DNA of 64,000 nucleotides from Gnetum montanum (lineage: Eukaryota > Plantae > Gnetophyta): positions 267,575 through 331,574 of the forward strand of contig MNCI01001087.1 in assembly GCA_015680685.1 (NCBI GenBank). The letters are read 5' to 3'. The first letter of the stretch is position 1, and every line of letters starts with the position of its first letter. Below are positions 1-42,479 of this stretch, piece by piece. Under the pieces are notes generated by a model. The model worked only from the letters and a program-made list of their open reading frames with translations. It did not search any database and was not told where the DNA came from. Made by a program: the position numbers and the translations under genes.

Positions 1-786
1 CCTCATTGTGCGCAAGCTATACTCGCGCTACACTCACGCTGCAGCGTGACATCAATGTGACCTCAACGTGAGTGAGCTAGAATGATGGATTTTTTACCAA
101 ATTTTGATTTTTGAAGCCTGATTGTTAAAGTGTGAGGATTTCCTAACTATGATTGACCTTGAAAATAATTTGAAAATTAGAAATTGAGTCTGTTGTGCCC
201 TATTTTGTACCACCTTTGGAAGCTCAAGCTAGACTCACACTGCCAGCGTGAGTGCAGCATGACCAAAGCATGAGCTGCAGCGTGACCACAGTGTGAGCTA
301 CAAAAACCTGCATTTTTGAACCTGATAGAGGCTAGAATTTAGATCTTGTCGATGATGAACCCTGAAGATGATTTGCACGTTGGAGATCAGATCTTTTTTG
401 ACTCAGTTTTGGGCTTTGAAAGTTGCTCCCGCTGCACTCACGCTGCTAGCGTGACCTCAGCGTGAGTGGCAGCGTGAGGGAGGAAATCTACACCTTTTGA
501 CATCAAAATTTCAATCTCTGAATGCTGAAGCTTGGAGTTGACATCAATGGCCCTTGAGGATGGCTTGCACCTTTGAAATCGAACCATTTCGACTCAGTTT
601 CGAGGCTCCTAGAGTTGCTCACGCTGCACTCACGTTGCCAGCATGACCTTAGCGTGACCACAACGTGAGTGCCCAGGACAAGCCAGCGTGAGTCTCATGC
701 CTTAGTCAAATTTTGCTTCCAAAAAGCCAAAAGGGCTCTGGTTTCTTCTTATTGCAAAGTCCTAGGTTGAAATTAGTGGTGTTTCA
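1..786 (-). repeat. 3' LTR of element A (partial)
   Basis: Direct repeat of ~18882-19617. Both copies end ...aaattagtggtgtttca on + (TGAAACACC start on -). Confidence 0.95.
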
Positions 787-2560: not shown

Positions 2561-2574
2561 TTAGTTTGATCAAA

Positions 2575-3760
2575 CATAGTACCATTTCAAGTACAGATGA
2601 TTTGTGGGGTTAGCAAACTCATTCCCATCCATGTCAACAAGTTTGAATGCTTCGTTATTGTATGCCTTGGTGACTAAGTAAGGCCCTTCCCAGTTGGCTA
2701 AGAATTTTTCTGGATGTTCATGAATGGCCTTAAGGACTAAATCTCCTTCTTTAATTAGGCATTTATACAGGTCTTCTTTGTGTTATTTTCATTGTTGTTT
2801 CTAGTACCACTCGATCTGATCAAGCATTCGCACACATTCCTCCTCAACTAAGTCGAGGTCAGTTTTGCGCAATTCATTACTTTCACTTTCATTGAGGAGA
2901 CCTGAGAGAGCTATCCGCAATGAGGAAACCTATAACTCTAATGGAAAAACAACTTTAGACCCATATACAAGACTATATGGAGTTTTACCTATAGAGGTTC
3001 GATGTGTCATTCTGTGTGCCCACAATGTGTAGACTAATTATTTGTGCCATCATTTCTTTCTCTGATTCAACATCTTTTTGAGCACCATGATGACAATTTT
3101 GTTTGTAGCCTCTGCTTAACCATTGCTCTATGGGTAGTAAGGTGATGAGAATGCATGTTTAATACTCAGGCTTTCATAGAACCTTTTAGTGTCTGCACTG
3201 CTAAACTGTCGCCCATTGTCAATAACGATGGTCATCAGAATACCAAAATGGATCATGATATTTTCTATTATGAAATTGCAAACATGCTTAGAAGCGGTCT
3301 TCCTAAGGGGAATAGCTTCTACCCATTTTGTGAAGTATTTAGTTGCAATCATAATAAAGCTATGTCCTGTAGAGGATGATGGCGTTATTGGTCCAATTAA
3401 TTCTAATCCCCATTTTTGGAATGGCCATGTGATTTGTGTTGTGTGCAATTCGTTAGGTGGCACGTGTATTAGATTACTATGCCTTTGGCAAATGTCACAT
3501 GTTCTGACCTTGGAGATGCAATCGTACTCCATGTGTGGCCAATAGTAGCCTAAGTGCCTAATCTTTGTTGCCATTGCTTTAGGTGCTATGTGCCCTCCAC
3601 AAAGTTCTTCGTGGACTTATTCTATGATGGTTTGACCATTGATGCCACTAATGCACATCAGCAGAATGTCTTCGTAGCATTTGCGACATAAGGCATCTCC
3701 TATTAATGCGTATTACCGAGAGCGCTTTCGCACAGTGTCCTTTTGAGCATTTGTCAAGTG
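2575..3760 (-). pseudogene. Integrase (HHCC zinc finger, rve core, GPY/F tail) of element A
   Basis: GYYWP...CDICQRH, WPFQKWGLELIGP, YFTKWVEAIPL, IVIDNGRQF, SSPYYP and NWEGPYLV-like motifs, with internal stops. Confidence 0.93.
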
Positions 3761-3919
3761 TTGTGGAGGTTCTCCTCTTAGAAGGTACTCTTTTATGTCA
3801 TCGTACCATTCTATTGCGTGTGTTGTGCTAACAGATGCTATAGGCATTTCATCAAGAGTGTTAATTATAGGTTCGACAGAGTTTGTTATTGAGTTAGGCA
3901 ACGCATGGAACATTTCGGG

Positions 3920-4310
3920 TGTCATGTTTAAGGCAAGTGTAGCAAGTGCATCGGAAATAGTGTTTTCACTCCTAGGGACATGTTGTATATCCACTTCTAC
4001 TAGTTGTCTCAACAGATGTTTGGTCAAATCACAATAAGGTTACAAATGGAGAGCTTTGTGTGCATAAATCTCAGTGACTTCATTAATGACTAGCTGTGAA
4101 TCACCTCGAACTACAAGACGTGAGATTCCCTAAGTTAATGCTGCTTGAAGACCTCTAAGAAGACCTTTGTATTCTGCCACATTATTGGTACAAGGAAAGG
4201 TCAATCGGTAGGCAAAGGGTTGGATTTCTCCATAGGGGTATATTAACATGGTCGTAGCACTTCCTCCTTGGGAAGTTGAAGCTCCATCAAAATAGAGGAT
4301 TGCCTCATAG
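3920..4310 (-). pseudogene. Additional archaeal-type RNase H (aRH) of element A
   Basis: LYFDGAS...TNNVAEY...GDSQLVI...HVPRSENTISDALA. Lies between RH and INT, which is diagnostic of the Tat clade. Confidence 0.92.
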
Positions 4311-4379
4311 TTTTTGGGTATGGTTTCTATACTGTTAACATTCTCATCTCGGAATTCAGGGTTTATCGTTGCTTGATCG

Positions 4380-6046
4380 TGCGTTGGCGAGACAGTTAAT
4401 TGCATGACTATTGCTTGACCTTTGGAGGAAGATTAAGCAACATAGTGTAGGTTAAACTCTACAATCATTGCTTTCCACCTAGCTATCCTACTCGACTCAT
4501 AGATGTTATTAGTGATGGAACAAAGTACATTATCCCTACAAATGATGTAAACTTGATTACGAAAGAGATAATGCCTCTATTTCTTCAAAGAGAAGACGAG
4601 GGCAAGGCATGATTTGTCTACATCGTTGTATCGTTGTTCATAGGCAATTAAAGCATGGCTTAGGTAATATACAGGGATCTTGACTCCATCTTGAGGTTTT
4701 TGACAAAGCATCGATGCAATGGAAGAATCAAAAGTTGCAAGGTAAATGTAAAAGGTTTTATTATCTTGTGGGGGATAAATGGTCGGCAGCTGAGCTAACT
4801 CTTGTTTTATGTTCTCGAACACTTCTTGGCATTGTTGAGTCCATTGGAAATGTACATTCTTTCGTAATAGGTGTTGCATGGGTCTCAACTTATCCATCAG
4901 CCTTTCGATAAAGCATATAATAAATTGCAACCTACCTTGAAGGCCACATAATTCTGTGAGCTTTTTTGGTGGTTTCATGTTAGTTATTGCCTTAACCTTA
5001 TCAAGGTCTATCCGTATTCCTATTTTAGAGACTACAAAACTAAGCATTTTCCCCTTTTTGACACCAAAGACACATTTCTTTGGATTGAGTCTAAGGTCAT
5101 ATTTGAGACAACGTTTAAGCACTAGGTCTAGAACGTTTACATGTTGTTTGGTGGTTTTAGATTTAACCGCGATATTGCCAACGTAATCATTGAGCAAATT
5201 GAGCATGTAATCACTAAATATCTATGTCATTGCTTGTTGATATGTTGCTCTTACATTTTTAAGGCCAAATGGCATCATTGTATACCAGAAAATGCCCCAA
5301 GGTGTCATAAAAGTTGTTCTAAGTTTATGTTTCGGATTGATTCTTATTTGGTTGTATCCTGAAAATCCATCCATAAAGGATAATAGTGCATGCCCAGCGG
5401 TTGTGTCAATAAGTTGATCGATGCTGGGTAGCAGGAAGTCATCCTTTATAGTGGTTGTGTTAAGATCACGGAAGTCAATGCATATGCGTATACTACCATT
5501 GTTCTTAGGAACTACAACAATGTTTGATACCCAATAGGAATAGTCAACGGCCTGGATGAAACCGACTTGGTAGAGCTTTGTGATTTCAACATGGACTGCT
5601 AAAGCTACTTCAGGTCTAACTTTTCGTGATTTTTGTTTCACCGTTTTAATTTTTTCATCAAGGATAATATTGTGTTGGACAACTCAGGGATCTAGTCCTG
5701 GCATGTCGATATATGACCATGCAAATATATTTATGTTGTCTTTCAGTACTTGAGTGATGTCATTGACAAGTTGTGAGTCTAATAGGGTGCTTAATTTCAA
5801 CATTCTAGCTTTGCCATTGAATGTAGTAATGCAGATTTCAACTAGAGGATCTTCAGTGATATTATCAGCTTCTAGATCCAAAGTCTTAGTCACATTTTTA
5901 GACCAATCTGATGTTTCTTGAGTGGAGGCTATTAAATTAGCATAGGTGGATGGGTCTAGATCCAAGGATTCTGGATTGCTTGCTCTTTTTACCTCCCCGT
6001 ATGGTCCACTGAGAGACAGTGTTGAAAGGATATTCTTGGTTGCCAT
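4380..6046 (-). pseudogene. Reverse transcriptase and degenerate RNase H of element A; the reading frame opens at its own ATG (6046)
   Basis: IFAWSY.DMPGLDP, WVSNIVVVPK.NGSIRICIDFRDLN, SFMDGFSGYNQI, MPFGLKN, LNPKKCVFGV and PVYYLS motifs. The YVDD box has decayed to YVGN. Confidence 0.95.
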
Positions 6047-6169
6047 GTGCTTGCTCCTACCAATTTAAACCAAGAGCGAAGAGACACCCACTTGATGAAA
6101 GAGTCACTAAATGTAAATGAACACAAGGAATTTTAATATGTACTAACAAAATTGGGAGACGCAGTGGTA

Positions 6170-6285
6170 GTCATGGCAGTTTTAGGCAGTGCCGGGCCAC
6201 ATGGCAATTTAAGGCCATACCGGGTTGCATGGCAGTTCAAGGACATACCGGGCTGCATGGTGGTTTAAAGCCATACCAGGCCAGA
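6170..6285. repeat. Short tandem array (~29 bp, catggcagtttaaggccataccgggc) between the RT start and the cargo gene
   Basis: Four visible imperfect units. Confidence 0.8.
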
Positions 6286-7544
6286 TAATATTCACGTTGA
6301 CTTATCATTTGGATTGAGTGCATAGAGCATTTTTTATTTTAAAATTTTGTGCGAACAATAAGTTTATGAGACTTTAAAATTTTATGAATTTTTGAAATGT
6401 TTATGTGTATGTATATATATATTTTTTTTGTTTTTAACTTTTCATCCCTTCCTTTGCATAATAATAACTTTCTTTGGCCTCATCTCCAGAGGCTGGAATG
6501 ATGAGGGATATAGGCCAACATAAAACAAAGATGATATAAATGAGAACAAAAAATTAAACGTGGTAAAATTTAAATAAATAAAATAAGAGAAAATAAAATA
6601 GAATGTTTTGGATTTAAAAGGGGGTTTTGAAATGAAGGGAGGGGTATTTTGTGCTAGCATGAGTTTGTGGACTGTAGCGTGAGCTAGGAGTGCAGCATGA
6701 GCAAGGTGACATGAAGGATAAGGGTAGAGGAAAGGCGAGTCGAGACAAAGGGAAGAGGTAGGCAGATCTAGCATTCATGGAGGAGAGAGAAGAACTTCTC
6801 CAGCGTCTCCCCCAAGCCAAGATTCCAACGTGGGATGGGTCCTTGCACAGGTAGATTTGTTTTTTCTTACTTTTCTCCACATTTTTATGGACAGCGTTAC
6901 CTAGGGTAGAATTTCTGTGGCTGTGATTTTCTTTATTTTTGTGGCATTTGGCATGAGTGCTTAGGGCGTGAATGCGCGCTTTGAGCGTGAGTGTCTAGGG
7001 CGTGAATGCGTGGTTGGATTTTCAAGCTTTCTTAGGCGTCCTGGTTTTTTGGCAATGTGAGTGCTAGGAGAAGAGAAAGGCGGTGTGAGTGCAGGCTTAG
7101 CAGCGTCAATTTTTTCTTTTGCAACATCAATGTATGATAATCCATTATTGACTACATCTTCAGAAACATTTGCTGCAAACAAGGGTTCCAGGGCAGGGCA
7201 ACGTGAACCACAAATTTTCAGGCTTTTAGGGCTTCTTGGGCCACAGGGTTTTCATCTTTTTCGAGCATCCTCGACTGCAGGGTTTCTTAGACTTCTTGAG
7301 TGTCCTGGGCCACAGGGTTTCTCAGCCTTCTTGGGCTTTAGGCCAAGACACGGCTAGCGTGAATGTGGGTGATGAAAGTGGAAAAGTGAGTGTAGGCCAA
7401 GAAGGCCTACGTTACAGGGAAGCCCTATTCTTTTTGGCAACGTGAGTTGTGTTGTAGGAAGGCATGTTCTTCTATGTTTTGTGTTGGCAACGTGATTGCC
7501 AGCTTTCTTGGGCAAAGTGAGCACAAGATAAGATTTCTATGGGG

Positions 7545-7652
7545 ATAGGCATCTTGGGTTCCAGGGAGATAGGCACTGTTGGTTCCAAGGAGATAGGCAT
7601 CATGGGTTTCAGGGAGATAGGCACCATGGGTTCCAAGGAGATAGGCACCATG
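7545..7652. repeat. 24-bp tandem repeat (ggagataggcaccatgggttcca) in intron 1 of the cargo gene
   Basis: About 4.5 units. Produces the spurious (PMVPISLE)n ORF. Confidence 0.85.
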
Positions 7653-8558
7653 GGTGGTTGGAACAGGTCTTGATCCCTGCAACGTGAGTTGCTGGTTCCC
7701 AACGTGAGCTGGAATGTAGAGGACCAAGCATGAGTGTTGGGGAGGCAGAATGATTTTTTCTGAACAATCCTAGCATGAGCGCTCCCAGCATGAGTCATTC
7801 GGCAATAGGTCCCAGCGTGAGCCCTCCCAACGTGAGTTTTTTTTTTTTGGAAAACTATAGCTTGAGTTTGCTGGGAAAGGCCATAGTGTGAGTTGATGCT
7901 AGAGCAGTTCCCAACATGCGTTAAAAATGTGAAGACGTGCATTGTTTACTAGGATGCCTATAAATTGCTTGTTGTTTACTAGGATCATGTTTATACTATT
8001 TACTGTTTTCCTTAAGACGAATGATTTAAACCTTGATTCAATGAGTGTTTATGTTCTGCCCTTCTGTGTGGATTTATTGTGAAATGGGTTTCAATGTATC
8101 CCAGTGAGCATCAGATACACTAAATAGATATTGGTGTCCTTGTCTCATGGGGTGAAGCTATGCATTCAAAGTATTTGTTTATGTGATTTTCAGTTTATGT
8201 GATTTTGACCTATTGTTAGCACTTAGATTCTTCACTTACCTAATGTCTTAGCTGTATGCAGGGGACCTAAATCTTCTCTTCTCATCGTTGAGCTTGTTGG
8301 CTTACTTGCTTGGTCCGGCCCCTTTGGACCAGACACACCTCCCTATGATATGCGCATCGGGCCCCATGTGATATGGTTCCACCCTAGTGTTAGTTCATTT
8401 TTTCATTTATCCTGCAAAATTTTAGTGTGGTTATATGGTCTTACCTAAGTGAACAGTTGGCTCGTGATGTTATTGAGACCATGTTGGCTGGGTCTACACG
8501 AAGCATGCTTGCCTTTGTTACCGACATAGATGAGGGGCTTTATAGAGTTGAGGGAGGC

Positions 8559-10564
8559 CCTGCTGAGGGTCCTAGATCTACACGTCCCTTGACTCGTGTG
8601 TGGGAGCTGCCCACTTGTACTCATTACAATAGTAGCAAAACACTTTTCTTAGCCTTCCATGTGCACACTCTATTTCAAAACCCACTTGGGACAGTATATA
8701 AAGTGGACAGGTATGCATTCTTGTGTCTTACTTTAATTTTGATTCCTTTTTCAATTTTGTGTCATCATCTAAATGTTGTTTTCCTATGCAAGCCTCATTT
8801 TGATGAAAATGGGATGTGTGATAATAATGGTGGGCTTGCCTTAGCATGCACAGCACTAGAGACATTCATGGCAGTCCCCATTCTTCGTGTCGTGGTACTG
8901 AACCAGATAAAAGTGGCTATTATTGACTACCATAGGAAGTTCTTGAGAGATTTTGAATGCTGCCAAGTTCGTGGTTGGTTACATAAGGATTTGTCTTCTA
9001 ATGCCCCAATTTTTCCTCAAAGGTTTGATCTTGCACCCACCCCACCTACACCATTCATAGATGATAAGTGACCGCACTCTAGACTCCATTTTCTTTTGCT
9101 ACATCATCATGTATCATGTTCTTTTTCTAACTCTTCACTCTATGTTTTTCTTTTTACAATAGTAATCCCCCTGAAGAAGTTACCATTATAATAGGGCGTA
9201 CTGAGACCACACTTTTTACGAAGTATGGGGAGGTAGAGCAATCACAAAAATGGTTGCAGAAGAAAGCTTTTGATTTGATCATCAACCGCCTTACTAGGGC
9301 AGGTTTGATGGACTTGTTTACAACTTTGACTCCTAGCGTTTCGGCTACTNNNNNNNNNNNNNNNNNNNNNNNNNNNNNNNNNNNNNNNNNNNNNNNNNNN
9401 NNNNNNNNNNNNNNNNNNNNNNNNNNNNNNNNNNNNNNNNNNNNNNNNNNNNNNNNNNNNNNNNNNNNNNNNNNNNNNNNNNNNNNNNNNNNNNNNNNNN
9501 NNNNNNNNNNNNNNNNNNNNNNNNNNNNNNNNNNNNNNNNNNNNNNNNNNNNNNNNNNNNNNNNNNNNNNNNNNNNNNNNNNNNNNNNNNNNNNNNNNNN
9601 NNNNNNNNNNNNNNNNNNNNNNNNNNNNNNNNNNNNNNNNNNNNNNNNNNNNNNNNNNNNNNNNNNNNNNNNNNNNNNNNNNNNNNNNNNNNNNNNNNNN
9701 NNNNNNNNNNNNNNNNNNNNNNNNNNNNNNNNNNNNNNNNNNNNNNNNNNNNNNNNNNNNNNNNNNNNNNNNNCCTGCTGAGGGTCCTAGATCTACACGT
9801 CCCTTGACTCGTGTGTGGGAGCTGCCCACTTGTACTCATTACAATAGTAGCAAAACACTTTTCTTAGCCTTCCATGTGCACACTCTATTTCAAAACCCAC
9901 TTGGGACAGTATATAAAGTGGACAGGTATGCATTCTTGTGTCTTACTTTAATTTTGATTCCTTTTTCAATTTTGTGTCATCATCTAAATGTTGTTTTCCT
10001 ATGCAAGCCTCATTTTGATGAAAATGGGATGTGTGATAATAATGGTGGGCTTGCCTTAGCATGCACAGCACTAGAGACATTCATGGCAGTCCCCATTCTT
10101 CGTGTCGTGGTACTGAACCAGATAAAAGTGGCTATTATTGACTACCATAGGAAGTTCTTGAGAGATTTTGAATGCTGCCAAGTTCGTGGTTGGTTACATA
10201 AGGATTTGTCTTCTAATGCCCCAATTTTTCCTCAAAGGTTTGATCTTGCACCCACCCCACCTACACCATTCATAGATGATAAGTGACCGCACTCTAGACT
10301 CCATTTTCTTTTGCTACATCATCATGTATCATGTTCTTTTTCTAACTCTTCACTCTATGTTTTTCTTTTTACAATAGTAATCCCCCTGAAGAAGTTACCA
10401 TTATAATAGGGCGTACTGAGACCACACTTTTTACGAAGTATGGGGAGGTAGAGCAATCACAAAAATGGTTGCAGAAGAAAGCTTTTGATTTGATCATCAA
10501 CCGCCTTACTAGGGCAGGTTTGATGGACTTGTTTACAACTTTGACTCCTAGCGTTTCGGCTACT
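8559..10564. other. Scaffold gap (N 9350-9773) flanked by an exact 791-bp duplication (8559-9349 = 9774-10564); probable assembly artefact
   Basis: Identical sequence on both sides of the N run at an offset of 1215. Confidence 0.9.
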
Positions 10565-13500
10565 GAGATGGTCACTATTGTTGATTCTTTCAGTGGTGAT
10601 GCTTCCCATTTTAACACACTAGTTCGAGAAGTCAAGGTATCTTTCCACTTGACCACTAAGTTTATTTCTGATCTTTTTTGTGTGCCCATAGATGGTGTCA
10701 TGGTGACCGTAGATAAAGCAACTAAAGACAAACAGGTCATAAGAGAGCTTGAGCAGTGGTTAGGCATGTCTCGGGGTCCTAAGGACTTTGCTATGCGAGA
10801 TGATACCTAATCAATGGAGATGAACTTCTTGTATCCTCTCTTCTGGGCACGAGCCTTTCCCAAATCTCTTTCTCAAGGAAGAAGCCTTGGGATCAAGTCC
10901 ACACGTGTGATACGTGCAGTTTTAGAGACGAGCATGCGCTATAACTGGGCACAGTTTCTTGGATCTAGTTTCCATGGAGAGATTGTTAGGTTACATTCAA
11001 ACATCCACACCAAATCCCATTTTACATTTGCTTTCTTCACAGGGTATCTACGTAGGTTTGTTGAATTCTTAGTAGTTTATGGTGATAGCCACTATATTTG
11101 GAGGGATCGTTCATAATTGTTCCACCCTTAGATTCGCCATTTGTATAGCACTAATAGATCCTAGGATCTACCAGAAGACATTGAGGAATCAGTATCAGTC
11201 ACTACTGGGGGTGCGGCTAGTCGTTCCCATCATTCCCATGATTGCTTAGGATTGGAATCGCCTAACCTGTGCACATCTGCTAAAAGGGCTGAACGTTTGA
11301 TTGGTGAGACTGTTAGGAAGTTTAAAGCACAGGTGAAGAGGAAAGAACGCCCAAGGGAGCCTGCTCCAGTTGTGATGCCACCAAGATCAAAGAAGATTCG
11401 ATTTGTACTACCAGTGGAGGGTAAGTAGTTTATTTTATTGTTACATATTTATTTTTATTGTGTTTTGGTTTATATGTTATTAAAAGTACATATATACTAT
11501 GTGATACTAACTCTAGGATTCTAGTGTTATTCAAAGGAAAGTCCTGAGAGGGAGAGAGAGGTCATGGCCCCGATAGTTGAACCAAAAGCAGTCACCACAG
11601 GACCTGAGGAGAAAGGAAAAGAAGGGGAAGAAGTAATCGAGGAACCTCTTGCTCCGCAAGAGGAAGATGTGACAAGCATCGTAGGGATGAAGCTTGCGGA
11701 GGCCTTGGATGCACTTAGGCATTCAAGTGATGAAAGAGATGTCCTTGATGGTTTCTTTGATGGATCTTTGCAACTTGGTGATCCACCCAGGCTAAACAAC
11801 GAAGGAATTTTTGGTATGTTCCCTTTAGCCTAATCCATATTCTGTGTCCTTTAATTTTCATGTGTTATTCTTAATTATCTTGGTTATCTTTAGCATCATA
11901 GGTAGATGCTGAAATTTTTGAGGCACATATATCTTGGGAAGCGGCGTCAAGATCACATGTCCCGGTTGAAGAGACCTCCCTTGCTTGTCCCACATCAACT
12001 GAATAGCTGAGACCATGCCTTGAAATTCCTAGCAAAATAAATTTTTTTAAGAGCATCGTTCATGATGTGGTCACTCACCTATGAGAAGCTCATCCAGAAA
12101 TAGGTATGCTAAGTATCTCATTTTTTATTTTTGTTTCTTTACGTTCATTATTGATTATGGCTTATTCATGTGTGCAGTACTTACACCTATAGGCGCTAAG
12201 CTCCAGTAGGATCCTTCTGAAGCCACTCATATTAATGCTCTCCCTGAATTGCCAGGGAATATTGGGCAAGTCCCTAGGAAGTTTTACGATGTAGTTTCTA
12301 GTTGCATTGTACAGAACAGCAAATTGCTTTGGACTTGTAGGCATTCGGTTGAATATCTATAGGAAGAGGTCCACTCATTGAAGGAAGCACTAGCAAAGGA
12401 GAGAGAGAAGAAAAGGGATCTCCAATCTCATTACGATCTTGCTGCTGCTAGGCTATCCGGTGATAGCACTTGGCGCACATCTAAAATCACCTATGCATGT
12501 TACTAGATGGTTTTGAATAGAAAAATGTAGGTGACACGGGACTAGTAGAACAAAGAGCACAGATGGACTTGCTAAACAGAAAATGTCATGATTGGAAGTC
12601 CTTCGTTGCAAAAGTACGAAAATGGAGCCAAGACCAAAAGAACCACAAGCATCAGTATAAGAAATGGTTAAAGGAGGAGTTAATTGAACATCACCAGATG
12701 GAGATGTTCATCGATGGGTTAGGCTTGCGATCTGCTTATGACAGGTTCGCTGAGTGCATCGAGGTGGAGGGATCTCTAGAGAGAACCATTACTACCGCCT
12801 CTAAGGAGGCTTCAACTGGCATGTTCTCTCTTGAGCGTCCTACCTGGACTTCAGTGGACAAGGGGAAAACCTTGGCTGGTATTGATCTTAGCCTGGAGGA
12901 GGATTGGGAAAACGTGCCTGAGGAGGAGATTCTATGGCATTTGGAGGCCAACTTAGGGCCTTCCTCACTTGTGAGTGTTTTATTGTGACATTTATTTTTG
13001 TATGGTTTTATCATTTTCATTGTTAGTGTTACTGTTTTTCTAAGTTTTGCATTTATGATTTTTTTTACTGGTATTACTTGTTTTTATTTTTATTTTTTCC
13101 TATAGGGACATGTTAATGATGGAGCTGGCCCCAGTGGAGCGAGAGCGGATGATGAAGAGGATCTTGGGGACCAGCCCCCTTCATGAGCTTAGTGTCAATC
13201 AAACTTTGGCCATTAAATGTTTTTGGATTTTTGGATGTTTAATGGAAACATATGGTTGACAAATGTAATAATATGGACCTAATTATGGCATAACCTGTTG
13301 GAATTTTACTACCATGTTGACGTATCATTTTTTTTTATTTTGTGTGTTTTCTCTTTTTATTTGTTTTTTTCAAGTATTATCGTGAACATATGCATGTAGC
13401 TAAATGTAAAATGGGGGAACAAGACATAAATCAACACTTGTAAAAGAAGAAAGTAACGAGAAGGCATAGATCGCGATTGCAACTTATATCATTTAAATGA

Positions 13501-13808: not shown

Positions 13809-16800
13809 CTAGTTATTGAGTTGCCTCTTAATCTTTTGTAGCTTAACGTGAGGGGTAGGGCATGCACACATGATCTTATACTCACCATCCCCTTCACTAG
13901 TGATGTCAAAGGGTAACTCCGACCAAGAGACATCAGTGGGAATGGCTCCTATGTTTGTGTTGTCTGGTGTTTCCTTAGTTTCAGTAGGGTTGTAAGTTAA
14001 CATTGGGTTCATGTTTTGAGGTATGCTCATAGTTCCTTGCTTAGGCTCAACCAACTCAATTTTTTACTCTTGATCTACCTCAGGGTATGAGGAAGTGAGC
14101 AATACTATTGTATCCCCACATATGATGATTTCACCGTCCTCATAAGGTAGGTGGATCTCCTGATGGATTGGTGAGGATACGGCTCTAAGTTGAGCTAGCC
14201 AGCGATGTCCTAGAATCAAGTTAAACCCTAGCATTTCATCAACTACTATGAATTCAGCTGATGTGGGGAATTGGTCCCCAGCTATGAAATCTAAGGTAAC
14301 CATACCTTTCACTCTAACATGGGAACCACTGAAGGATTTTAGGAAAGAAGTTGTCGTGGGCTGTATTTGTTCAGTGAGTCCCAATTTTTCGATGATGGGA
14401 AAAGGTATTACGTTTGTTGCCCCACCATCATCGACATGGACCCTACATATCTTGAAATGATTGACTTGTATCATTATGAATATACGGGCTGTGATGACTT
14501 CTCCTATTTTCTCATATAGTTTAATTTCCTTAGCATAAAACTCTAAGGAGATAGTCTTTGATTCCTAAGGTTGCAGGGACAATACTACATAAATAGACGG
14601 CTCATCTGCAAGAAGGTCCTCACTAACAAGGATCGAAGTCAGCATCTGTATGAGAGCTTCCCGATGTATAATTGAAGTCATTACTAGATCATACAGGCTT
14701 AAAGAAGTATTCTTTTGTTTCAAGGCTTGTGTGACTTGAGTTAATGCACTCGCTAAATCTTTACCATTTGGGCCACCCTTATCTGTAGAGACTTGGTCTA
14801 GTTGAGCCAGCATTCGTATCTCCTGTGGAGGGATTTTTGTGTTGGTAATTGAGGATGCTGGGTTTGGGACACAACCCGTGACATTATCCTCATTTTGATG
14901 ACTCGTACTAGGCTCATTAATGGGCGTACCCATAGGAACAATGTTTAGCGGTGTGGGCTTTGCCGGTCTTAATTCATGCTTATGGTTTTCTCTTTCCAGG
15001 CACTCTCTTGTTAGCCTATCGGCAAAATGTTCTCGCAAAGGTCATGGGGGAATGGAGGTGGGTTGTGTGTCAAGGTGTTTTGGCACCCGGATAACAAAGG
15101 GAATGGGTCAGTTTTTAGATGATGTGGTTGTTGCTACAATAGAAGGAGGTACACGGATGATGAATGGTTTTTGTGGTATAGGGAATGTACGTATGATGAA
15201 AGGGGTTTGAGGAGATGTTAGGGTAGGTGTGTTTTCTGAAGGCTTGCGAATCACAAAAGGTTTTTGCAGGACATCCTATCTATTCTCCACATGGATAGTA
15301 TTAATCACATATGATGCATCATTAGTATTGAGAGGATCCTTGTAGAATCCCATGGATTGGTTTTGGGGTCTTAATAGATTTCCCTCATCGAATACTACTC
15401 CACCCCTATCAATCATGTGTTGTATATCTTGTTTCAAGATGAAACAGTAATCAATCCCATGACCACACCATTGGTGATATTCCCGAAACCTATCCAACCT
15501 AAAGCCTCTTGGAACAGGGGGCTCATTAGCTGTTGCTAGAGCTAGGTTCTTGGCCAACTCACAAAATCGACCATGTTTTTGAGAGGCCACAGGAGACATT
15601 TTTTTATGTTGGATTAGCCCGGCCTTTAGAAGTTGATCAGCAATTGTGAAGGCTTCATAGGCAAGGGTGTATATTGAGCAGGGTCTTTTCTTTCGAATGT
15701 ACGGGCATGACCCATGTTGGTGTTTTTATTTGATAAAGGTTCAGGTGTAGGCATAGGTGTGTTTCTTTCGTGGCCGTTTGGGGTGGCAGTTTGTTTTCCC
15801 TTTTGTCTGAGATGGTTAGGTCAGGCTGTCTCTGCTATCGCCGCTACCGTTGTTTTGGATTTATCCTTCCTTGTATGTTGGCTCCTAAAGGTCGAGTAAG
15901 CTGGCTCATTACTTGTTTGTGCCACTTCCTCTATGTCCTTAATTTTCACAAATGCTTGGCTCAAGGTATGGGCTTTCAAATAATAGAGTCTTAACTTAAT
16001 AAAGTCATTCATAGCTACCTTATAGATGGTAAGCAGATATGTTTTAGGGATAGGCTTGTGAAGTTCATTTAGGGTTACACTCCACCTTTGGATAAATTTC
16101 TATGCTGGCTCTAACGGTGCTTGTTTAATATGGATCAAGTTATCCAATGTGGCTTCAGGTTTTAAATTATACTTGAAACAGGTGACAAATTGGTGCAACA
16201 AGTCCTCTAGAGAAGATATGAAGCTACGGGGTAGAGCTCAATACCAGTCTAAGGCCTTTCTGGCTAAGGAGATAACAAACACTTGCAGAATTACATGAGG
16301 CCATGCCTGAAGCAATAGGCATTCTATTCGAAATGTCACTAGGTGAGCATTTGGGTCTCCCTCTTCATTGTACTTGGTTAGCTGGGGTAACGAGACTCCC
16401 TTTGGCAAGGTTAATGGTGGAATTGAAGGGTCGATTAGATCATCTTAATAAAAGTCCAATACCTTGACTTCCTTCATGTTTACAGTTTTGAGACGCTTTA
16501 ATTCTTCTGCTAACGAATGCATCATTTTCTTCATGTCTGCCCACTCTTGAGCGGTAGGCAGATCGGTGGGTTGAGTTGGTGGCAACTCATAATGATTCGA
16601 TTGTTGCATTGTTTGTGGAAAGAGAGATTGTTGGACTATCATTTGTTGCGGTGGGATGACATTTGGGGCTAAGAAAATGGGGTGTGGTATGCTATAGTGA
16701 GTAGACAGGGTTTTCTAAACAACTGGTGGTACCCACTACCCAGCCATAGGTTGTGAAGTCACTCCCTGAACATCTTGGGTTGAAGTAATCAATGGTGACA

Positions 16801-17212
16801 TGTGGATTTGCACTTGAGGTATGTAATGGGAGGACGTGAAAGCTAGTATGACCGATGGCATCCTAATCACTTGAGGCCGAAAGGTCGATCTTGCGTTAGT
16901 TTGGGGAGGGAGTTTTTGGGACTGTACTTGTGGAGGTATGATGGAAGTGGATGCATCAGAGTGAATATTGAGCATGGAGAAGATGGGAATGGAAGCAAGT
17001 ACCTCTTGTCAGGAAACTGGTGATCCAATGTTTGCATATGAAGGGGGAAGCACAGTTTCTTCCAGAAAAGGGTGGAATAATGAGCTTGTATGGGCATGGA
17101 GGCTAATGGTATGGTATGAATCCCCATGTTTAGATTGGGCTGCGAAGTCATCTTCCTCATCTCCATTCTGAGGCTCTATTGGAGGTAGTTGTAAGGCTTG
17201 ACTTCTTGCCAT
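13809..17212 (-). pseudogene. gag-protease ORF of element A
   Basis: Retrotransposon gag region (KYNEEGDPNAHLV-like, YHQWCGHGIDYCFILKQDIQHMID). Aspartic protease RVHVDDGGATNVI...FNLILGHRWL. Ends KIKRQLNN*. Confidence 0.9.
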
Positions 17213-17910
17213 GAGAAGCTAGGATATGCATTTATGATGGTGTTCAAACAGCGGGATTATATCAAATGCTGAAGGGATAATTTCATAGTCTCACTTCACT
17301 TCCCTCTCTACACAATCGATAGGTAAGCTGGCTTGGATCTTAACACAGATGAAGTTATACTATTCAGGTGTAAGAGTTGCATAAGTAGGGTTTTTTCCCT
17401 GTAGCCTAAGTGACTAGCGCATAGGGCCTTGGGGGTTTATCTGTTCAATAACAGTTATGGGTTCTGTGGCAGTCACAAGGTTTGAGGTTTCAGCTCCAAA
17501 GTTAGAGGTCGGAAATGTCACAGGGTTAACTTGGGAGGATTCAATAGTGAGTGTAAGTAAACTGGGCTGGACGACTTGAGTGTGAGACTCTACATCGTGA
17601 GTAGCTACAGCGTGAGTAAGCTGACAGATAGCGTGAGCAAATACAGCATGAGTACTACAGCATGAGCAAGCTAACAAATAATGTGAGTGACTGATAGCGT
17701 GAATACTATAGCATGAGTAGCTATAGCATGAACAAGCTGATAGACAACATGAGTGACTGACAACGTGAATAGCTAAGAACAAGGTGGGTAAGTCAAGCCG
17801 TGCGTGTGCATGCTAGCTTGACAAGCTGAGCTTTAGTTTTAGCACTTCGTCTGTGTACTGTTTGGATAGGTAGTATGATCTACGTTTTGGTAGACGATAA
17901 ACAACTCTGG

Positions 17911-17932: not shown

Positions 17933-19617
17933 TGTACTAACCTAAATCGTCAGTGTACGGCTGGAAGGGAAAACAAACACCGAAAGATCATTGGGCACAC
18001 ACAGCTAACCTTGCCTTCGCCCAAGGGCAAGCTAGAAAAGAAAATGAAGATAGAGTGCCTTAGATGATCTACATGCAAATCAACCAAGGACTTCCCCGAG
18101 CGTGAACTATGACCTGTGCTGGGGTTATCGTAACTGATGTTTGAAACGTAAACAGTGTGCACGAAATGTAAACAAAAACGTATGCAGAATTGGTATTGTA
18201 AACATAATGTAAATTGAACGTAAAACATAGCAAACAATATAATGGCTGGCAAAATTAACTGTATTGTATTGCTTAGAAATGATGTGTACCAATCAAAGTG
18301 TATTTGCACATGTGGATGGAAAGTCAAGCACCAAGCCCTAGGACAATGTGATGTGTTTCAGGAGTGCTTGGATGCTAGGAGTCAGGTGTGTCCGAGCACC
18401 CAAGGATTGCTGGTCTGAGTTTCCTAAGCCATCTGCCTTTAAAATTGCCTACCTTGTTTATGTGAATTTATAGGGTATTTATAGGGTTTGGCTAGGCTCA
18501 GGTGTAGAATTCATGGGTTGAATCAACGGTTGAGAGATGAGAGAAAAATGGATCTAGTGACACATGTTCGATAGACAGCTTTGTATGAGTTGGATGTGTG
18601 TGGGCAAGCTATGTTTTCGACCAAGGGCCTTGTATCTTACAACGTGTGATAACTTACTCAAGCTAGCTTATGCTCATGGAAACACATACAATTCAGAGTG
18701 TAAGAGCCTGACAAACTCACAAATGATGAAAATTTACAGTGAAATTAACTCTGGCTTGCTTGAAACTTATAGATCTTTGAATTGACCGTTGTAGGATATT
18801 AATTTGAGTGGTTCTGTGGCTGTTTCAGGTGTCTTCGCCTGACAAGAACTTCCAACGTGAGTTGCTTTTTCCTTAGCATGTCCTCACCATGCGCATGCTA
18901 TACTCACGCTACACTCATGCTACAGCGTGACCTCAACTTGACCTCAGCGTGAGTGAGCTAGAATTATGGATTTTTCACCAAATTTTGATTTTTGAAGCTT
19001 GATTCTTGAAGTGTGAGGATTTCCTAACTGTGATTGACCTTGAAAATGATCTTAAAATCAAAAATTAAGTTTGATGTGCCCTATTTTTTACCACCTTTGG
19101 TAGCTCACGCTGGACTCACACTACTAGCATGAGCTGTAGCGTGACCACAGCGTGAGCTGCGAAAACCTATAATTTTGAACCTAATAGAGGCTGGAACTTG
19201 GATCTTATCGATGATGAACCCTAAAGATGATTTGCACATTAGAGATCAAATCTTTTTTAACTTAGTTTTGGGCTTTGAAAGTTGCTCACGCTGCACTCAC
19301 ACTGCCAGTGTGAGTGAGTGACAGCGTGAGTGAGAAAATCTGCACCTTTTAACACCAAAATTTCAATCTCTGAATGCTGAAGCTTGGACTTGACATCAGT
19401 GGCCCTTGAGGATGGCCTTTGAAATCGAACCATTTCGACTCAGTTTCAACGCTCCTAAAGTTGCTCACACTGCACTCATGCTGCCAATGTGACCTTAGTG
19501 TGCCCAGGACAAGCCAGCGTGAGTGTCATGCCTTAGTCAAATTTTGCTTCCAAAAAGCCAAAAGGGATCTGGGTTGTTCTTATTTCAAAGTGTTAGGCCA
19601 AAATTAGTGGTGTTTCA
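17933..19617 (-). repeat. 5' LTR of element A (~1,685 bp)
   Basis: TG...CA termini, adjacent to the PBS, right part repeated at 1-786. Flank gtacc (19618-19622) is the expected TSD. Confidence 0.92.
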
Positions 19618-27715: not shown

Positions 27716-27809
27716 GTCTTGCTAGTTCATTCCAACGATATTAAATAATTTTTTACTAAGTTCTAAATAGTGCATGTAATAAACAAATAATCCTCGAAAA
27801 CAGTTCGAA

Positions 27810-28666
27810 TGATGAGCAATGAGGTACCCCTACACCCAAATTTATGAATCACAAGCATTCATGCGCAATCCAGTAAAATTTCGTAGACCTTAAGTTCCCA
27901 TGTATGCTAGTTCTAGGACATAAAATCTAATCATGATAATCATTGTCTTCCCAACTACACTTGTGGAACTTAGTTGTATGGTTAAGTGTAATTGACTCAC
28001 ATGATTTTTATTATCTTATATTTTATTCACCTACAATTAACAACAAGATGAAACTCAATTTATGAGCCACTTTAACTAATATAATTGCTAATTAATAACC
28101 AACTATCCTAACATAAGTATCCAGTCCCACTTTCTGTGAACATCTTGAACATGTATAATGCTACTAGGTTACCAAAAGTTAAGCATTGCGAAAATTACCA
28201 AACATCATGTGCATGCTCGAAGCAATCATACTTATGTGCTTAATTAACTGTTATTTAATCTAGCTAACTTAATTTAGCTTAATAACTTAGAAGCATTAAA
28301 AGAAATTGTACAAAAAATTAAATACCTAAATAAAATATTTAAGTTATCCAAGGTGCTGCAAGGTTTGATCAAAAAGCTCATCTTTATTACCACACACATG
28401 ATCATGCTTAGGTACAACAATGCTCGAATAAAGATCCATAAACTCAATGACTCCTATCGTGGGCACCTTGGAAAATATTCTAACTTTGGTGAAAAGAAAC
28501 TACAAGATCTCTACTATACTATGACAAAATCTATTGCCCAAATAGTGTGCCTAAGTGCTATATTTATAGGCCAGCACACATCCCACAATATCAGATATAC
28601 AACATCTTTTCTTGGGCCTCAATATCAGGTATCCAATATCGAAGCCAGATATAGTACTATTCATCA
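27810..28666 (-). repeat. 3' LTR of element D
   Basis: tgatgag...tcatca, direct repeat of 34075-34944. Confidence 0.9.
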
Positions 28667-37142: not shown

Positions 37143-40100
37143 TGAAGAAGAAGACTCCCACTAGGAACCTTACATTAGAAGATGTAGACATCACTTCCCA
37201 GAGCTTAGCATGTCTACCTCATCCAAGGATTGGAGAAGGCTCCATCACCATCTTTCCAAGGTACACATTCTTACCAATTTTTCCAGTTTATTTCATGTAT
37301 TCTATTTTTTGGGTTTTCTTCCATTTCTTAGATCTAGGCTTATGTATTCATTATTTTGAGCTTCCATAAAAATCTCACTATAGATCTAGGCCATGTTTAT
37401 TCATTTTTTATGCTACTTGGGCTTTCGATTTTGGTTTTGTTGATGTTTAAATGATTTTCCCACGATTTTCATGGATTTTTGCTTTTCCCACCCAAAAAAG
37501 CAACACCACTTTTGGATTCTTCTTTGAGAAAATGGCTAGTTTTTTTAATTCTCTAAGTTTATGGAGTTATTGTCTATTACTTTTTGGTCAATGAAATTTT
37601 AAACCACTTAATTTTTCCTAACGAATAATTTTCTATGACTATTGTCATCAAGCTATGTCAAGTGGGTTTTCTACCCTTAGGCTATTTTTTTTCTAAGATA
37701 TGTAATTTTTATACACTGAAATATTACAAAATTTAGGTTTTATGGTTATGTATTTTTAGGTTACAATTCAAGGATTCCAAGAAAATTTTGAATCACCAAA
37801 TCTGGATAAATATTTTGGCTACTATGGTAATTTTCATGACCACATGCAAAAAGGGTTTCTAACATGATGACCACAGTTAGGTAATTTTGATAATTCTTTT
37901 TGTGAAACTATGGTTAATAATTTTTACAATTTCTTGTTATGGGGTTGTAGTTCATGGTTTACAATTTCAACGACTATTGAATTTTTGAATTTTGTTAAGC
38001 GGTTGATTTTTTATGGTCATTTCTGTTTGATCACATGAAATTGTAGTTATAAGGCTATTACACATTTACCCCTATGAATATGGACAACATTGAGTTTGTA
38101 AAAAACAATTCTTCAATGTTCCATGGTCTTGTAGATCGTCTATGATATTGGAAAGGGGTTGGAAGTGGTCTAGATCAAATTAAAAAATTTTCCATATTTT
38201 TTGTAAGTGTTTCCTATGGCCATTTTGGTGTAAAGTGTGAGTTTGTTGAATCTTGGTTATAAACTTAGGCTATATTTTGTATCTTTTCTAAGTGGGAATT
38301 TAATGTGGAAATTGGAAATTTTGTCCTTTACTATTACTTTTACATTTTTATTCCTAAACTGCCAATTCCATGTTTTTGGTTGTAATTAGTCATTGTTGCA
38401 ATTTTAGTATTAAACTATCATTTGATGTGAAATATTTCAATTTTTTAAGTGTTGTTTACTATGTTTGATGGTTATAAGGCTAAAACAGCTGGTGTAGTAG
38501 TTGTAATGTCATCTTGCTTATTAGTTTTAATGTATTTATTCAATCCTATCTTTTAATTTTAGTTTTTTGATTTGCATGGTCATAACAATTATGTGTTGGA
38601 TGTTACAGGACTTTCTTGAAACCAATTTTGGTGGTTATAGAGATGGTGGGGCTTTTATGCTACATCCATCTCCCTAGGAATAATGCTCTAATTTTAGATA
38701 TGGAGTGGGACTGACGTGGAATATGGTTTAGGCCAAGAGCTAAAGACTTCCTTTCCTATCTTCCTCAGAACTTTAGTGTGATGGTTTGGTCATACCTAAT
38801 GTCTAAAGCTACAATAATAATCATAGAGACCATCTTACCTAGGTTATCTAGCTTAATTGTCAAGTTCATGATGGATGAACTTGATGCTCATGTGAAGGGA
38901 AAGATCAATGAGAGCACTACCATTGTGAATTCTTGCAAATTGTTAAAAATGTAAAAGATGCCTAAATTTAGCTAGTATAACATGGACAACACTTTGATTG
39001 TTGGCTACCATGCTCATACATTTTTCCAAAATCCTCCAAGCACCATTTATCACATAGATGGGTGAGTAAGGTTGCCTTTTTGTTTATGGTTATTTTCTTT
39101 GTTATGTACTTAAGTTGTGATAATTTTTTGTTGTTTTACTTACCTATAGATTTAGGATGGATGAGCAAGGCTTAATCAAAGGTAACAACCTCCTACTCCT
39201 AGCTCACATAGCTTTAGAGGTGTTTACCAAAAGCCCAAACTTGAGGCTTGCGATATTGGAACAACTAGAGAGTAACTATGAAGATAGCACGGAATGCCAT
39301 CCTAAGGCTTATACAAGATGTCTAGGGAATGGAACAATAGATAGTTGGTGGGGCAACCCATCCCTTGATGACTTAGAAGTAAATCCATCCCCTAGAGCTC
39401 CTAAGATGCCTACATCAAATAAGTGAAGTGGGTATTTTTATTTTGTTGATTTGGGTTATTCGTATGCTACCATTTTTTTTAGTTATTTTGGTTTTGGTTA
39501 TTTAAATAGTTGTATTAGTTTTCTTTTAACTTAGTTATATTTGTTGTAACTTGCTTTACATGATGTACTTATGCTAAGGCTAATAGGCTATCCTTTGTTA
39601 TGTTGTAGAGGCCACTCTATCAACTAAAGTTACAATTATCACTTCAAGACATGTTGAGGAGACCTTGATCCTATTGGCTGTCAAACTAAGCACTCTATGC
39701 TATACATGCAAGGGTTATTCATGCAAGCCTATTTGACCTCTTCATGGCCCCAAGCCCTATCATTCCTACTGTAGAGGTGATGAACATCATTGACTCCTTT
39801 AGCCAAGAAGTCAGCAGGTTTGTCACCCATGTTCATAGTGTGACTGTTGTTTTAGACATTAATGCATCCACCTTTAATGAATTCGTTGGTATTTCAAATG
39901 ATGGCATACCAATTATTACCAAATTAGGGAGGGAGGTGGACCATTGAGAGGAGGTAGAAGAGTGGCTAAATGCTCATCGTGGTAACAAGGGATAGTCTCT
40001 AAAACAAATCAAGTCACCATTGATTAGAGAAACATATCCCTTGTTCCAATCCTGATCATTTCCTAAGTTGTTATCATAGGAAAAGATCTTAGGCATGGAG

Positions 40101-42090
40101 TAGGCTTGGGCCATGAAGTAGGTAGTCACCGAAGATGCCTAATTCGACTAGGCTGCACACTTGATTTCTGGACTATAATGGAAGATCCAAAAGCTTCGCA
40201 ACAACCTCACCATGAAGTGTCATGTGCACTTTGAACCTTTTTTAGATTATTTATAGAGGTTTTTAGAGTTCCTAGTGGTGAGGAAGGGTGGACGATGGAT
40301 TATCCAAGATCCATCTCAACTCATCAAACCATGGATGAAACTCCTTACTTTGATCACTTAAGCCCAAGACCCACCAAAAGCTATAGGTGAATCACTATCT
40401 ATCACTACTAAGGGGATTAGTGATAGGCATTTTGTATCCCCTAATAGCACAGGGTTGGAACCTCTCATAATACCAACTAGTGTCAAGAGGTCTTAAAAGT
40501 TACATACAAAGGCTGAGGGGACAACTAGGGCCAAGCTTAAGAGGCCCTTGGTGGATGAGACAACACTATTGATCAAGGAGCCTTTGCCAAAGAAATTTAT
40601 CTTCAAGCTTAAAGGGATGCAACATGATGTTAGAGCTATGTTCTTGTTAATTTTTTTTTTTTTTTGTTAATTTACTTTTTCACAAGTCATGGTGTTTAGT
40701 TGGTATAGTTGATTGATGGTCTTGCAAAATGTGTTATGTTACTTTATGTTTCATGGTTGATATTTTTGTAGGTAAGCAAAAAGAACAAGAGGCCCTTGCA
40801 ACAACAATAGGGGCTTTAGAGAAGCAAAGGCATTAAGAGAAGAAGGAGGAGCAGCAATGTCAAGAAGATGAAATACTAAGGAATTATGAGGATGAAGTGT
40901 TGTAGCAAGAGGAAGATGAAGTTTTACCCCTTATTCCCATGGGTCACTTTGATGCCTTCCTAGAAGATCCACAAATGGATGAACCCCCTATCATCATATT
41001 AGAGGACCTCCTAGGTATTTATGATTTTCCTTGGTCTTAAATGTTGTACATGGAATCTGTCATTTCTTCACACTTATCTTTGGCTATAACTATTTATTGC
41101 TTTCTACACTTATTGTAGCCCAAGAACCGTAGGTAGAAGCTTCCACATCTACCTTATGCATGCAACTATGGATGGATACCCTCAATAAACTTAAATTCAT
41201 GTGGGGTGTAGCTAAGGATATGATTAGCCAATTGTAGCAAATAGTTCCTAAGATCATTAAGAGTCCTAACCCATTTTGCCTTTATTGTTTTCTATGTTTG
41301 GTTTTGATATGGTTTTCTATGGTTATGAAGTTTTTTTGTTATTAACTAGTTTCACTTGGATTTTTTTTCTATGTTGGCTACAATGCCTAAACTAAGATGG
41401 AATCCTGATAACCCAGTTCAAGTTGCTGCCTTACCCCCTTTATCTCCTAAGATGGAGAATGTCCCAAAAAATCTATATGAGGGTGCCACTAGGTGTGCAC
41501 TCGCATGCACTAAATCGTTGTGGGAATGTAGACAATCTAATGATTTCTTATGGAAACAAGTTGTAGAATTGAGGAAGGACAACCAAAAGCTAATAGAGGA
41601 GGTGTAAGAGCTCATAGATCGTAAGGACTTCATAGAAGCCTAAGTGCACAACAGAGACTCCTTGCTTAACAAGGAGATAACTTGGGCTCATTATTGGAAT
41701 GCGATCCAAAGCAAGGTTTCCCTTGTTATAGAGGTGGTAGAATAGAATCTCCAAATTGATCTCATAAATCATAAGGTTGGTAAGTGGAAAGATTACTATG
41801 CTTGGGTCCTTGAGTGGGGTCATACACAAAATGATGACAAAAGGATGTACAAAGCTAAATGGGAAGCCTACCTCAAATGGCTACAGGAGGAGTCTATAGA
41901 GTGGTGGAGGCTAGAACTATTCATGATGGACATCAACATGGAGAAATTCTATAAACTATTTGTGAAGAGCATGGTTGTAGCCAACTCCCCTACTCGTTAG
42001 ATTACTACTGCCTCAGGGGAGGCAACTATTGCCACATTCTCAAATAAGCTCCCCACATGGAGTGACATTGATAAGAAAGTTAAAATGTCC
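37143..42090 (+). pseudogene. Antisense cargo gene of element C (homologue of 6777-13186), heavily decayed, last exon not found
   Basis: Exons ..-37260, 38609-39061, 39150-39422, ~39600-40640, 40772-41014, 41119-~41260, ~41380-42090. Same splice phases as A at introns 1, 2, 3 and 5. Homologous peptides, e.g. IEMVGLL/VELVGLL, QNFSVMVWSY/QNFSVVIWSY, HTFFQNPP/HTLFQNPL, RFLEFLVV/RFVEFLVV, ITTASGEA/ITTASKEA. Confidence 0.8.
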
Positions 42091-42479
42091 ATAACATCAT
42101 AACCAATTTTAGGCCATGGCAAGCCATGTGATACTTGTCATTTTAAGGCTGTGGCATGTTGTGTGGAAGGCTCTACAATACGTAAAAGAAAACATAATTT
42201 TTGGTTATTTTTATGGATTTTTTAAATTTTTAATAGTTTTTTATAAAGTAGTTGTTGTTTTTGTTGTGAAAAAAGGAAAAACAAAGAAAGAAAAAGGCTT
42301 TTGATGAATAATCATGCAAACAAAAGTAAATCATTAAGCTACATGTAGAAAATGGTTAAAAATAAAGTAATTAAAAAGGCATAAACTAGCAACAAAAAGA
42401 TCTAGGCTAACTAGTTATGAATACACATAGTTATAAGGTTATGATCACATAGGGTGTAAGAAGGATCAAGAGCATATAT

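Follow-up and report, generated by a model that had tools for sequence, protein, structure and literature searches.

Tat-group Gypsy long terminal repeat (LTR) retrotransposons bear extra open reading frames (ORFs) that encode either a Plant Mobile Domain (PMD), sometimes with a coiled coil, or Transposase_28 with a coiled coil, and that are often antisense (PMC4408406 and PMC11963269; here and below, statements on cited papers refer to the accessible part of each text). In the window analysed here, a 64,000-nt stretch of Gnetum montanum DNA (contig MNCI01001087.1, positions 267,575 to 331,574, forward strand), a Tat-type retrotransposon that we call element A carries an accessory gene whose fourth exon (10378-11420) is our main subject. 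The gene resembles the extra ORFs of TatIII and Ogre (PMD) and of Retand (Transposase_28) in being an accessory gene of an element with a second RNase H (PMC4408406, PMC11963269, PMC6317226) and, like those of TatIII/V and Retand, it is antisense and encodes a globular domain followed by a predicted coiled coil. It differs in its placement between the protease and the reverse transcriptase (RT), whereas the known ORFs lie 5' of gag or 3' of pol, and in its seven introns, its predicted inactive HAD domain at the N-terminus and its lack of a PMD, DUF7745 or Transposase_28 match in Pfam.

Other systems share single traits with this locus. Arabidopsis MAIN/MAIL1-PP7L and MAIL3 also tie an inactive phosphatase domain to a transposon-associated domain (PMC7156037, PMC11180769), but the domain here has a HAD/NIF rather than a PPP fold and is encoded by the element, and PMD identity is only a candidate. 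The orchid Gypsy elements with a captured AlkB demethylase likewise fixed a host enzyme domain in an extra ORF of a large element (PMC9289625); AlkB is active, however, whereas the domain described here is predicted to be dead and is spliced and antisense. VANC (DUF1985; PDB 9LNK) is also a transposon-encoded accessory protein, and the VANC/PMD fold is a candidate for exon 4; it differs in residing in Mutator-like DNA transposons, and no sequence match between it and exon 4 was obtained. The ORFs of Transposase_32 (PF20167) and ATHILA ORF1 (PF03078) resemble exon 4 in motif spacing, compared by eye, but they lie on the sense strand without a phosphatase domain (PMC11728184), and exon 4 has no Pfam match to them.

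We propose that exon 4 encodes the central domain of a Tat-borne antisense accessory gene whose product is predicted to be a nuclear helper favouring transcription of the element, a reading to which we assign a probability of about 0.42.

The spliced antisense gene and its phosphatase-like domain

The gene lies on the + strand at 6777-13186, antisense to gag-pol and between protease and RT. This position, bounded by the LTRs of element A, bears out an earlier, sequence-only reading in which the transposon itself encodes the gene. Its eight exons sum to about 1,070 codons:

Exon 1, 6777..6850, + strand: ATG start, 74 nt, GT at 6851; read depth 21-40 against 0 in intron 1
Exon 2, 8262..8710, + strand: NIF/FCP1-type HAD domain with catalytic aspartates replaced; frameshift near 8400 in the element A copy
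Exon 3, 8793..9067, + strand: 30% identical to 39157-39420; present again at 10008-10282 through the assembly duplication
Exon 4, 10378..11420, + strand: conserved globular region of ~210 aa, then a Ser/Thr-rich stretch, then a basic patch resembling a nuclear localisation signal; four in-frame stops
Exon 5, 11517..11813, + strand: acidic, low complexity; splice signals
Exon 6, 11906..12103, + strand: splice signals; joint 12099-12201 in 2 reads
Exon 7, 12178..12970, + strand: helical; 28-39% identical to 41389-42075; frameshift near 12500 in the element A copy
Exon 8, 13106..13186, + strand: acidic tail and stop codon; joint 12970-13138 starting GT

A second, more decayed copy is found in element C (37208..42078, + strand; exon 4 block at 39675-40610). 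It adjoins - strand protease and gag (42479-45175), the same placement as in element A. Exons 2, 3, 4 and 7 match between the two copies at 28-39%, and gag-protease at ~41-52%. The identical layout in two diverged elements therefore marks the gene as an old component of the family rather than a chance insertion. We rejected the idea that the gene came in with a nested element of its own: its position is identical in both elements, and no ends of such an insertion were seen.

The motifs on which the sequence-only reading was built (GLMDLF, EMVTIVDSFS, FISDLFCVPIDGVMV, RYNWAQFLG, GYLRRFVEFL and KRKER...PPRSKKIRF) all lie in a single + strand frame (10379-11422), and the exon is bounded by AG at 10376-77 and GT at 11421. 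Conservation in element C was confirmed, with exon 4 aligning to 39675-40610 at 31.4% over 315 aa (E 2.7e-35). The local score of 265 was reached by 0/500 shuffles (29.7 +/- 4.8), and identity at codon positions 1, 2 and 3 was 45, 58 and 36%, respectively (312 codons). The block is therefore real and was formerly under selection as protein. The basic patch is weaker in the element C copy. The PMD-like PIDG motif stands in element A (LFCVPIDG) and fails in element C (FVGISNDG), so that this likeness is not conserved.

The element A copy is a pseudogene, and the transcripts derive from other family members; its exon 4 frame contains 4 stops (the element C copy has more), and its intron 2 acceptor is damaged. 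Exons 2-4 are partly doubled in the window because of an unmerged contig overlap at 8559-10564, an assembly artefact in which a 791-bp exact duplicate (8559-9349 = 9774-10564, 100%) flanks a 424-N gap.

Splicing was assessed with raw poly(A) reads of the same species label aligned at 80% likeness, comprising 26% of read sets X4-X6 and 2% of X1 and X3, from two studies in which X5 and X6 represent a single sample. Nearly all reads came from relatives, since at least 95% identity was reached by 1/758, 1/584, 3/552, 1/417, 1/370 and 6/405 reads in the respective run sets. Coverage was exon-shaped and zero across most of intron 1. Joints were listed between exons 1 and 2 (6, 4 and 4 reads), exons 3 and 4 (2 reads each of X4 and X6), exons 6 and 7 (2 reads), and exons 7 and 8 (2 and 3 reads in the two stranded runs). 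An additional 16 loose ends in X4 carried letters like the end of exon 3, and at the exon 5 donor (11813) 15 and 23 loose read ends carried exon 6-like letters. Relatives 80-95% identical to this copy thus splice exon 3 to exon 4, which supports the fusion of exon 4 to the upstream pseudophosphatase domain; transcription of exon 4 apart from exon 3, the outcome named beforehand as speaking against the fusion, is not the pattern that these reads give.

Reads from relatives also cross intron 2 (8711-8792; depth 11 at 8717 in X5), where the frame is open in the element A copy, and this is possibly a retained intron. In addition, exon 1 is matched by 165, 121 and 96 poly(A) reads that diverge at 6838 into unrelated sequence (6778-6877); another locus joins an exon 1-type first exon to a different downstream exon. 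Over RT (4400-6050) and gag (15450-17500), most stranded X1 reads are in + orientation, antisense to gag-pol, and X3 has little over gag. The read pile at 13328-13370 is a poly-T artefact. An Ogre-style sense intron that excises the insert was set aside: by eye no conserved donor follows the protease and no such joint was listed among read alignments that did not span both insert ends.

Exon 2 of element C scored 22.0 bits (E 1.4e-4) against the Pfam NIF family (PF03031), just over the cut-off of 21.8, and matched TIGR02245 at E 7e-4. We assembled a NIF control set of 15 intact proteins, left from 18 recovered at 20 viral loci after near-duplicates were dropped (3 checked as NIF), and hhalign of exon 2 against these gave 96.3% (E 2e-9, ~136 columns). 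When the NIF hidden Markov model (HMM) was run over 642 six-frame pieces, C (independent E-value 5e-10) and A (0.003) ranked as the top two. The R/H-P, W and core strands of FCP1/SCP/UBLCP1 (PF03031, TIGR02245) are retained, but the aspartates of DxDxT and DD, which are catalytic in HAD enzymes, are not. DLDET (DxDxT) and the DD of motif IV are invariant in 15/15 control proteins, whereas in the A and C counterparts DLDET reads EMVGL and ELVGL and DD reads GY and AF, so that four catalytic aspartates are replaced in both (the motif I columns of the alignment are low-confidence but fixed by position). Since the motif I replacements are common to two independently decayed copies, the loss predates the decay. 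Exon 2 is thus an FCP1/SCP-type HAD (NIF) domain, predicted from its residues to be inactive. Exon 3 probably completes the HAD domain at its C-terminal end and adds a linker; alone, it gave no significant hhalign match to NIF. No homologue of exons 2-3 was found among 1093 candidates, 1568 longer candidates or PDB sequences. Readings of an HxH motif as JAMM, 2H or histidine phosphatase were dropped after the NIF match. PP7L belongs to the PPP family and is devoid of catalytic residues (PMC11180769), and exon 2 is HAD; the earlier description of a transposon-encoded dead phosphatase of a different fold is therefore correct.

Possible kinship of exon 4

The profile searches proposed with the PMD/Transposase_32 assignment, against PF10536, PF20167 and PF03078, returned no Pfam match at E<=10 for either copy of exon 4, PF20167 and PF03078 being assumed present in the Pfam copy searched and weak matches being dropped by the HMMER filters. 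The same was true of DUF7745. A control Ogre ORF1 scored 44.7 (PMD) and 210.4 (DUF7745) bits. We then used a PMD-like set from 80 plant Tat loci, in which 10/14 scanned ORFs were DUF7745 and 3 of them also PMD; the 14 aligned rows are Ogre-type only, and PMD-B, PMD-C, Transposase_32 and ATHILA members are not among them. The claimed PMD-likeness found no support in this set, hhalign of exon 4 giving 0.3% (E 0.2) and negative controls 0.3% and 0.5%. As high a score was obtained in 13/100 shuffles, and pairwise shuffles against 10 PMD-like rows gave P<0.05 in 0 cases for A and 1 for C. An N-terminal motif HMM of the PMD-like rows did not place its motif in exon 4, from which their T-x-E-E and C-F-T-F motifs are also absent. 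Comparison with the Athila-like accessory ORF at 54548-54886 gave 0.3% by hhalign and shuffle P values of 0.20 and 0.09. Exon 4 had no homologue among 1711 candidates (lengths 191-609 only) in a 5.8-billion set, among 1.84 billion representatives, or in viral and metagenome contigs, and only chance matches among PDB sequences. A language-model atlas yielded nothing for any portion of the gene.

The AlphaFold model from the two-row exon 4 alignment had a predicted local distance difference test (pLDDT) score of 30.4, too poor for fold comparison. At such confidence, the lack of a Foldseek match at E<=0.001 (viral and PDB) and the best VIA-align Z of 5.0, with VANC21 not among the best 50 rows, are meaningless. 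The model of a control Ogre ORF1 (L016:3753-4868; pLDDT 47.7) ranked VANC21 (9lnk) first of 48161 chains, at a middling Z of 5.8 (root-mean-square deviation 5.4, 191 aligned; next chain Z 3.6), and judging from this model the PMD-VANC fold link may extend to DUF7745. In the PDB sequence search, the PMD-like profile did not pick up VANC21. Relatedness within this group can therefore escape sequence comparison, and the negative results for exon 4 are weak.

We take the Transposase_32/ATHILA spacing to be a helix, a long beta-hairpin, h-T-x3-h-x2-h-h-x-h-P and a later N-W, which fits exon 4. By eye, a long hairpin is followed in both copies by h-T/N-x3-h-x2-h-h-x-h-P/S-x2-G, with N-W-A-x-h-h further on in A. 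This spacing suits Transposase_32/ATHILA better than PMD, which is a lead and not a result. Exon 7 has heptad-like stretches by a crude score and is predicted to form a coiled coil (with a weak DivIC match, E 0.06, in the element C copy); together with the Tat extra ORF precedent, this gives some prior weight to kinship of exon 4 with the PMD group. We put slightly less than even odds on exon 4 belonging remotely to the PMD/DUF1985(VANC)/Transposase_32 group, more Transposase_32-like than PMD proper, and think it very unlikely to be PMD proper. A MAIN/MAIL-PP7L-like module, that is, a PMD with a PPP-type phosphatase, was not found, as the domain is HAD/NIF and PMD identity lacks support; the echo of that system may be drawn as an analogy only.

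Element A and its neighbours

Element A is a complete but decayed Tat-type Gypsy LTR retrotransposon on the - strand, and the window otherwise consists of decayed plant retrotransposon DNA. Its own parts are as follows:

3' LTR, 1..786, - strand: cut by the window start; 83% match to 18882-19617; starts TG
Polypurine tract, 787-800, - strand: adjoins the 3' LTR
pol, 2573..6064, - strand: RT, native RNase H, second archaeal-type RNase H and integrase; broken by stops
gag and protease, 13815..16525, - strand: frame reaches a stop soon after the protease; 41-52% matches to 42479-45175
5' LTR, 18882..19617, - strand: TG start; far end unmapped; abuts the cut protease of another Gypsy element

The LTR pair has diverged by a Kimura two-parameter distance (K2P) of 0.12; a primer-binding site and a target-site duplication were not found, the left end of the element lying beyond the window. 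Pfam placed RVT_1, RT_RNaseH, a weak RNase_H/RVT_3, Integrase_H2C2 and rve in this order on pol, the second RNase H (RNase_H/RVT_3; E 0.016-0.03, below cut-off) falling between the native RNase H and integrase. This order is the Tat arrangement (PMC4408406, PMC10508981), and an intact Tat polyprotein was collinear by tblastn (gag/protease 16429-14124, pol 5872-2573; 39% over 1112 aa). Element A thus has the additional archaeal-type RNase H, LTR pair, TG ends and polypurine tract of the Tat clade. A quick RT tree (77 rows, no named references) pairs its RT with the second Tat pol of the window, outside a 65-row clade holding 22/22 PMD-labelled rows; the combination that marks the Ogre subclade, an RT in the Ogre clade and a sense 5' PMD ORF, was not seen.

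Tandem arrays lie within element A at 2215-2557 and 17590-17771, and at 7544-7655 (intron 1), with units of 37/38 bp, 51-66 bp and 24 bp. The pol frame and the exon 1 start are head to head, ~700 bp apart (6064-6777), with a 28-bp tandem array at 6172-6283, and this interval is a possible two-way promoter.

The second Tat pol, in 25693-34944, has an RT 67% identical to that of element A and may belong to element C; it is interrupted at 27719 by a nested element whose LTRs (27725-28666, 33989-34944) are 83% identical. A short motif is repeated many times with loose spacing at 35000-37100, upstream of element C exon 1. A further decayed Gypsy element (53000-59040, - strand) bears a 3' sense accessory ORF (54548-54889) with no Pfam match, and a third protease fragment of the same family (63027-63574, - strand) has no accessory-gene match alongside.

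Possible role, alternatives and meaning

If exon 4 belongs to a nuclear helper, its action might be pictured as follows. The introns probably survive copying because they are antisense to the packaged RNA; on that opposite strand they would not be removed. The basic patch of exon 4 would serve as a nuclear signal and bring the protein to the nucleus, where the catalytically stripped FCP1-type domain would likely hold phosphorylated partners. FCP1/SCP enzymes recognise the tail of RNA polymerase II, and the substrate here could differ. The exon 4 domain would target chromatin if it has the PMD/VANC fold, and the C-terminal helices would oligomerise, in keeping with the extra ORFs in other Tat lineages that combine a PMD with a coiled coil, with the net effect that the element's transcription is favoured. 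PMD-C and VANC have a common fold, and VANC is a DNA-binding anti-silencing factor (bioRxiv 2024.09.27.615353, PMC13547354); PMD-C proteins counter Polycomb at DNA motifs (bioRxiv 2024.09.27.615353, PMC13547354, PMC5418596, PMC7156037). A fuller version, in which an old Tat lineage captured a spliced gene, retained antisense within gag-pol, whose product combines a dead FCP1-type phosphatase with a DNA-binding domain of PMD/VANC fold, acts for the element against silencing and traps phosphorylated transcription machinery on its chromatin as a transposon-side counterpart of MAIN/MAIL1-PP7L with another phosphatase fold, seems to us rather unlikely.

Several points weigh against a nuclear helper. 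The NIF Pfam score is barely above the cut-off, and in the element C copy only; beyond the window, nothing matched exon 4 by sequence or profile; no intact copy of the gene was seen; and pol would have to be expressed across a 7-kb insert. Joints 2-3 and 4-5 are absent from the listed joints, and reads pass through intron 2. Finally, the reads are short and come from relatives, and they do not establish a single frame open across exons 2 to 4.

The alternative that survives best keeps the same gene and fusion and takes exon 4 as unrelated to PMD/Transposase_32, a lineage-specific domain acting, for example, on the element's RNA or particle; it is a tentative but substantial possibility. All profile tests were blank although the same thin-profile method detected NIF at 96%, the PIDG motif is lost in the element C copy, the element's RT falls outside the PMD-carrying Ogre-like clade, and Gypsy extra ORFs form 314 unrelated groups (PMC6317226). 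However, a true PMD-like profile misses VANC21 as well, yet the corresponding model ranks VANC21 first, and both exon 4 copies fit the PMD/Transposase_32 motif spacing.

The gene could also be a passenger that does nothing for the element: either it was captured in the distant past from the host or a DNA transposon, or it has been domesticated for the host's benefit, the RNA deriving from such a copy. Its spliceosomal introns suggest that it began as a host gene, the reads carry common differences as from one or a few loci, and many exon 1 reads continue into unrelated sequence. Nevertheless, the gene has been kept in the same place, with the same exon order and protein-level conservation, in two elements whose gag-protease regions are 41-52% alike, and no host homologue was found among 1.84 billion representatives, which makes this account improbable.

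Least probable of all is a true PMD (PF10536) fused to a dead phosphatase and functionally convergent with MAIN/MAIL1-PP7L and MAIL3: the dead phosphatase is established and fused through exon 3-4 splicing, PP7L without catalytic residues partners MAIN/MAIL1 (PMC11180769, PMC7156037) and Tat elements carry PMDs (PMC4408406), but exon 4 has no PF10536/DUF7745 match while Ogre ORF1 reaches 44.7 and 210 bits, it lacks the T-x-E-E and C-F-T-F motifs, PP7L is PPP-family and unrelated to HAD, and MAIL3 differs in domain order and enzyme state.

Tat extra ORFs and host-enzyme capture (AlkB, PMC9289625) were already known. For LTR elements, our literature search, subscription papers excepted, turned up neither a NIF domain nor an antisense gene with several introns lodged between protease and RT. 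Neither was described in the accessible parts of PMC6317226, PMC11728184 and PMC9289625, a term search of PMC13468544 gave no matches, and the NIF term was absent from five supplements of PMC6317226, which may exclude its domain table. With seven introns, and antisense between protease and RT, such a gene would escape surveys that scan the two sides of pol for single long ORFs. The solid novelty is the spliced antisense pseudophosphatase gene, and the PMD label is unproven.

What the extra genes of plant Gypsy elements do has long been an open question, and in most of them no domain can be recognised. In this gene an enzyme fold is recognisable and its active site has been removed in two distant copies, which provides a testable handle, namely the binding of phospho-peptides without catalysis. 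Should exon 4 prove to have the PMD/VANC fold, domains of this kind would have been paired with an inactive phosphatase at least two times, on the host side and on the transposon side of the conflict.

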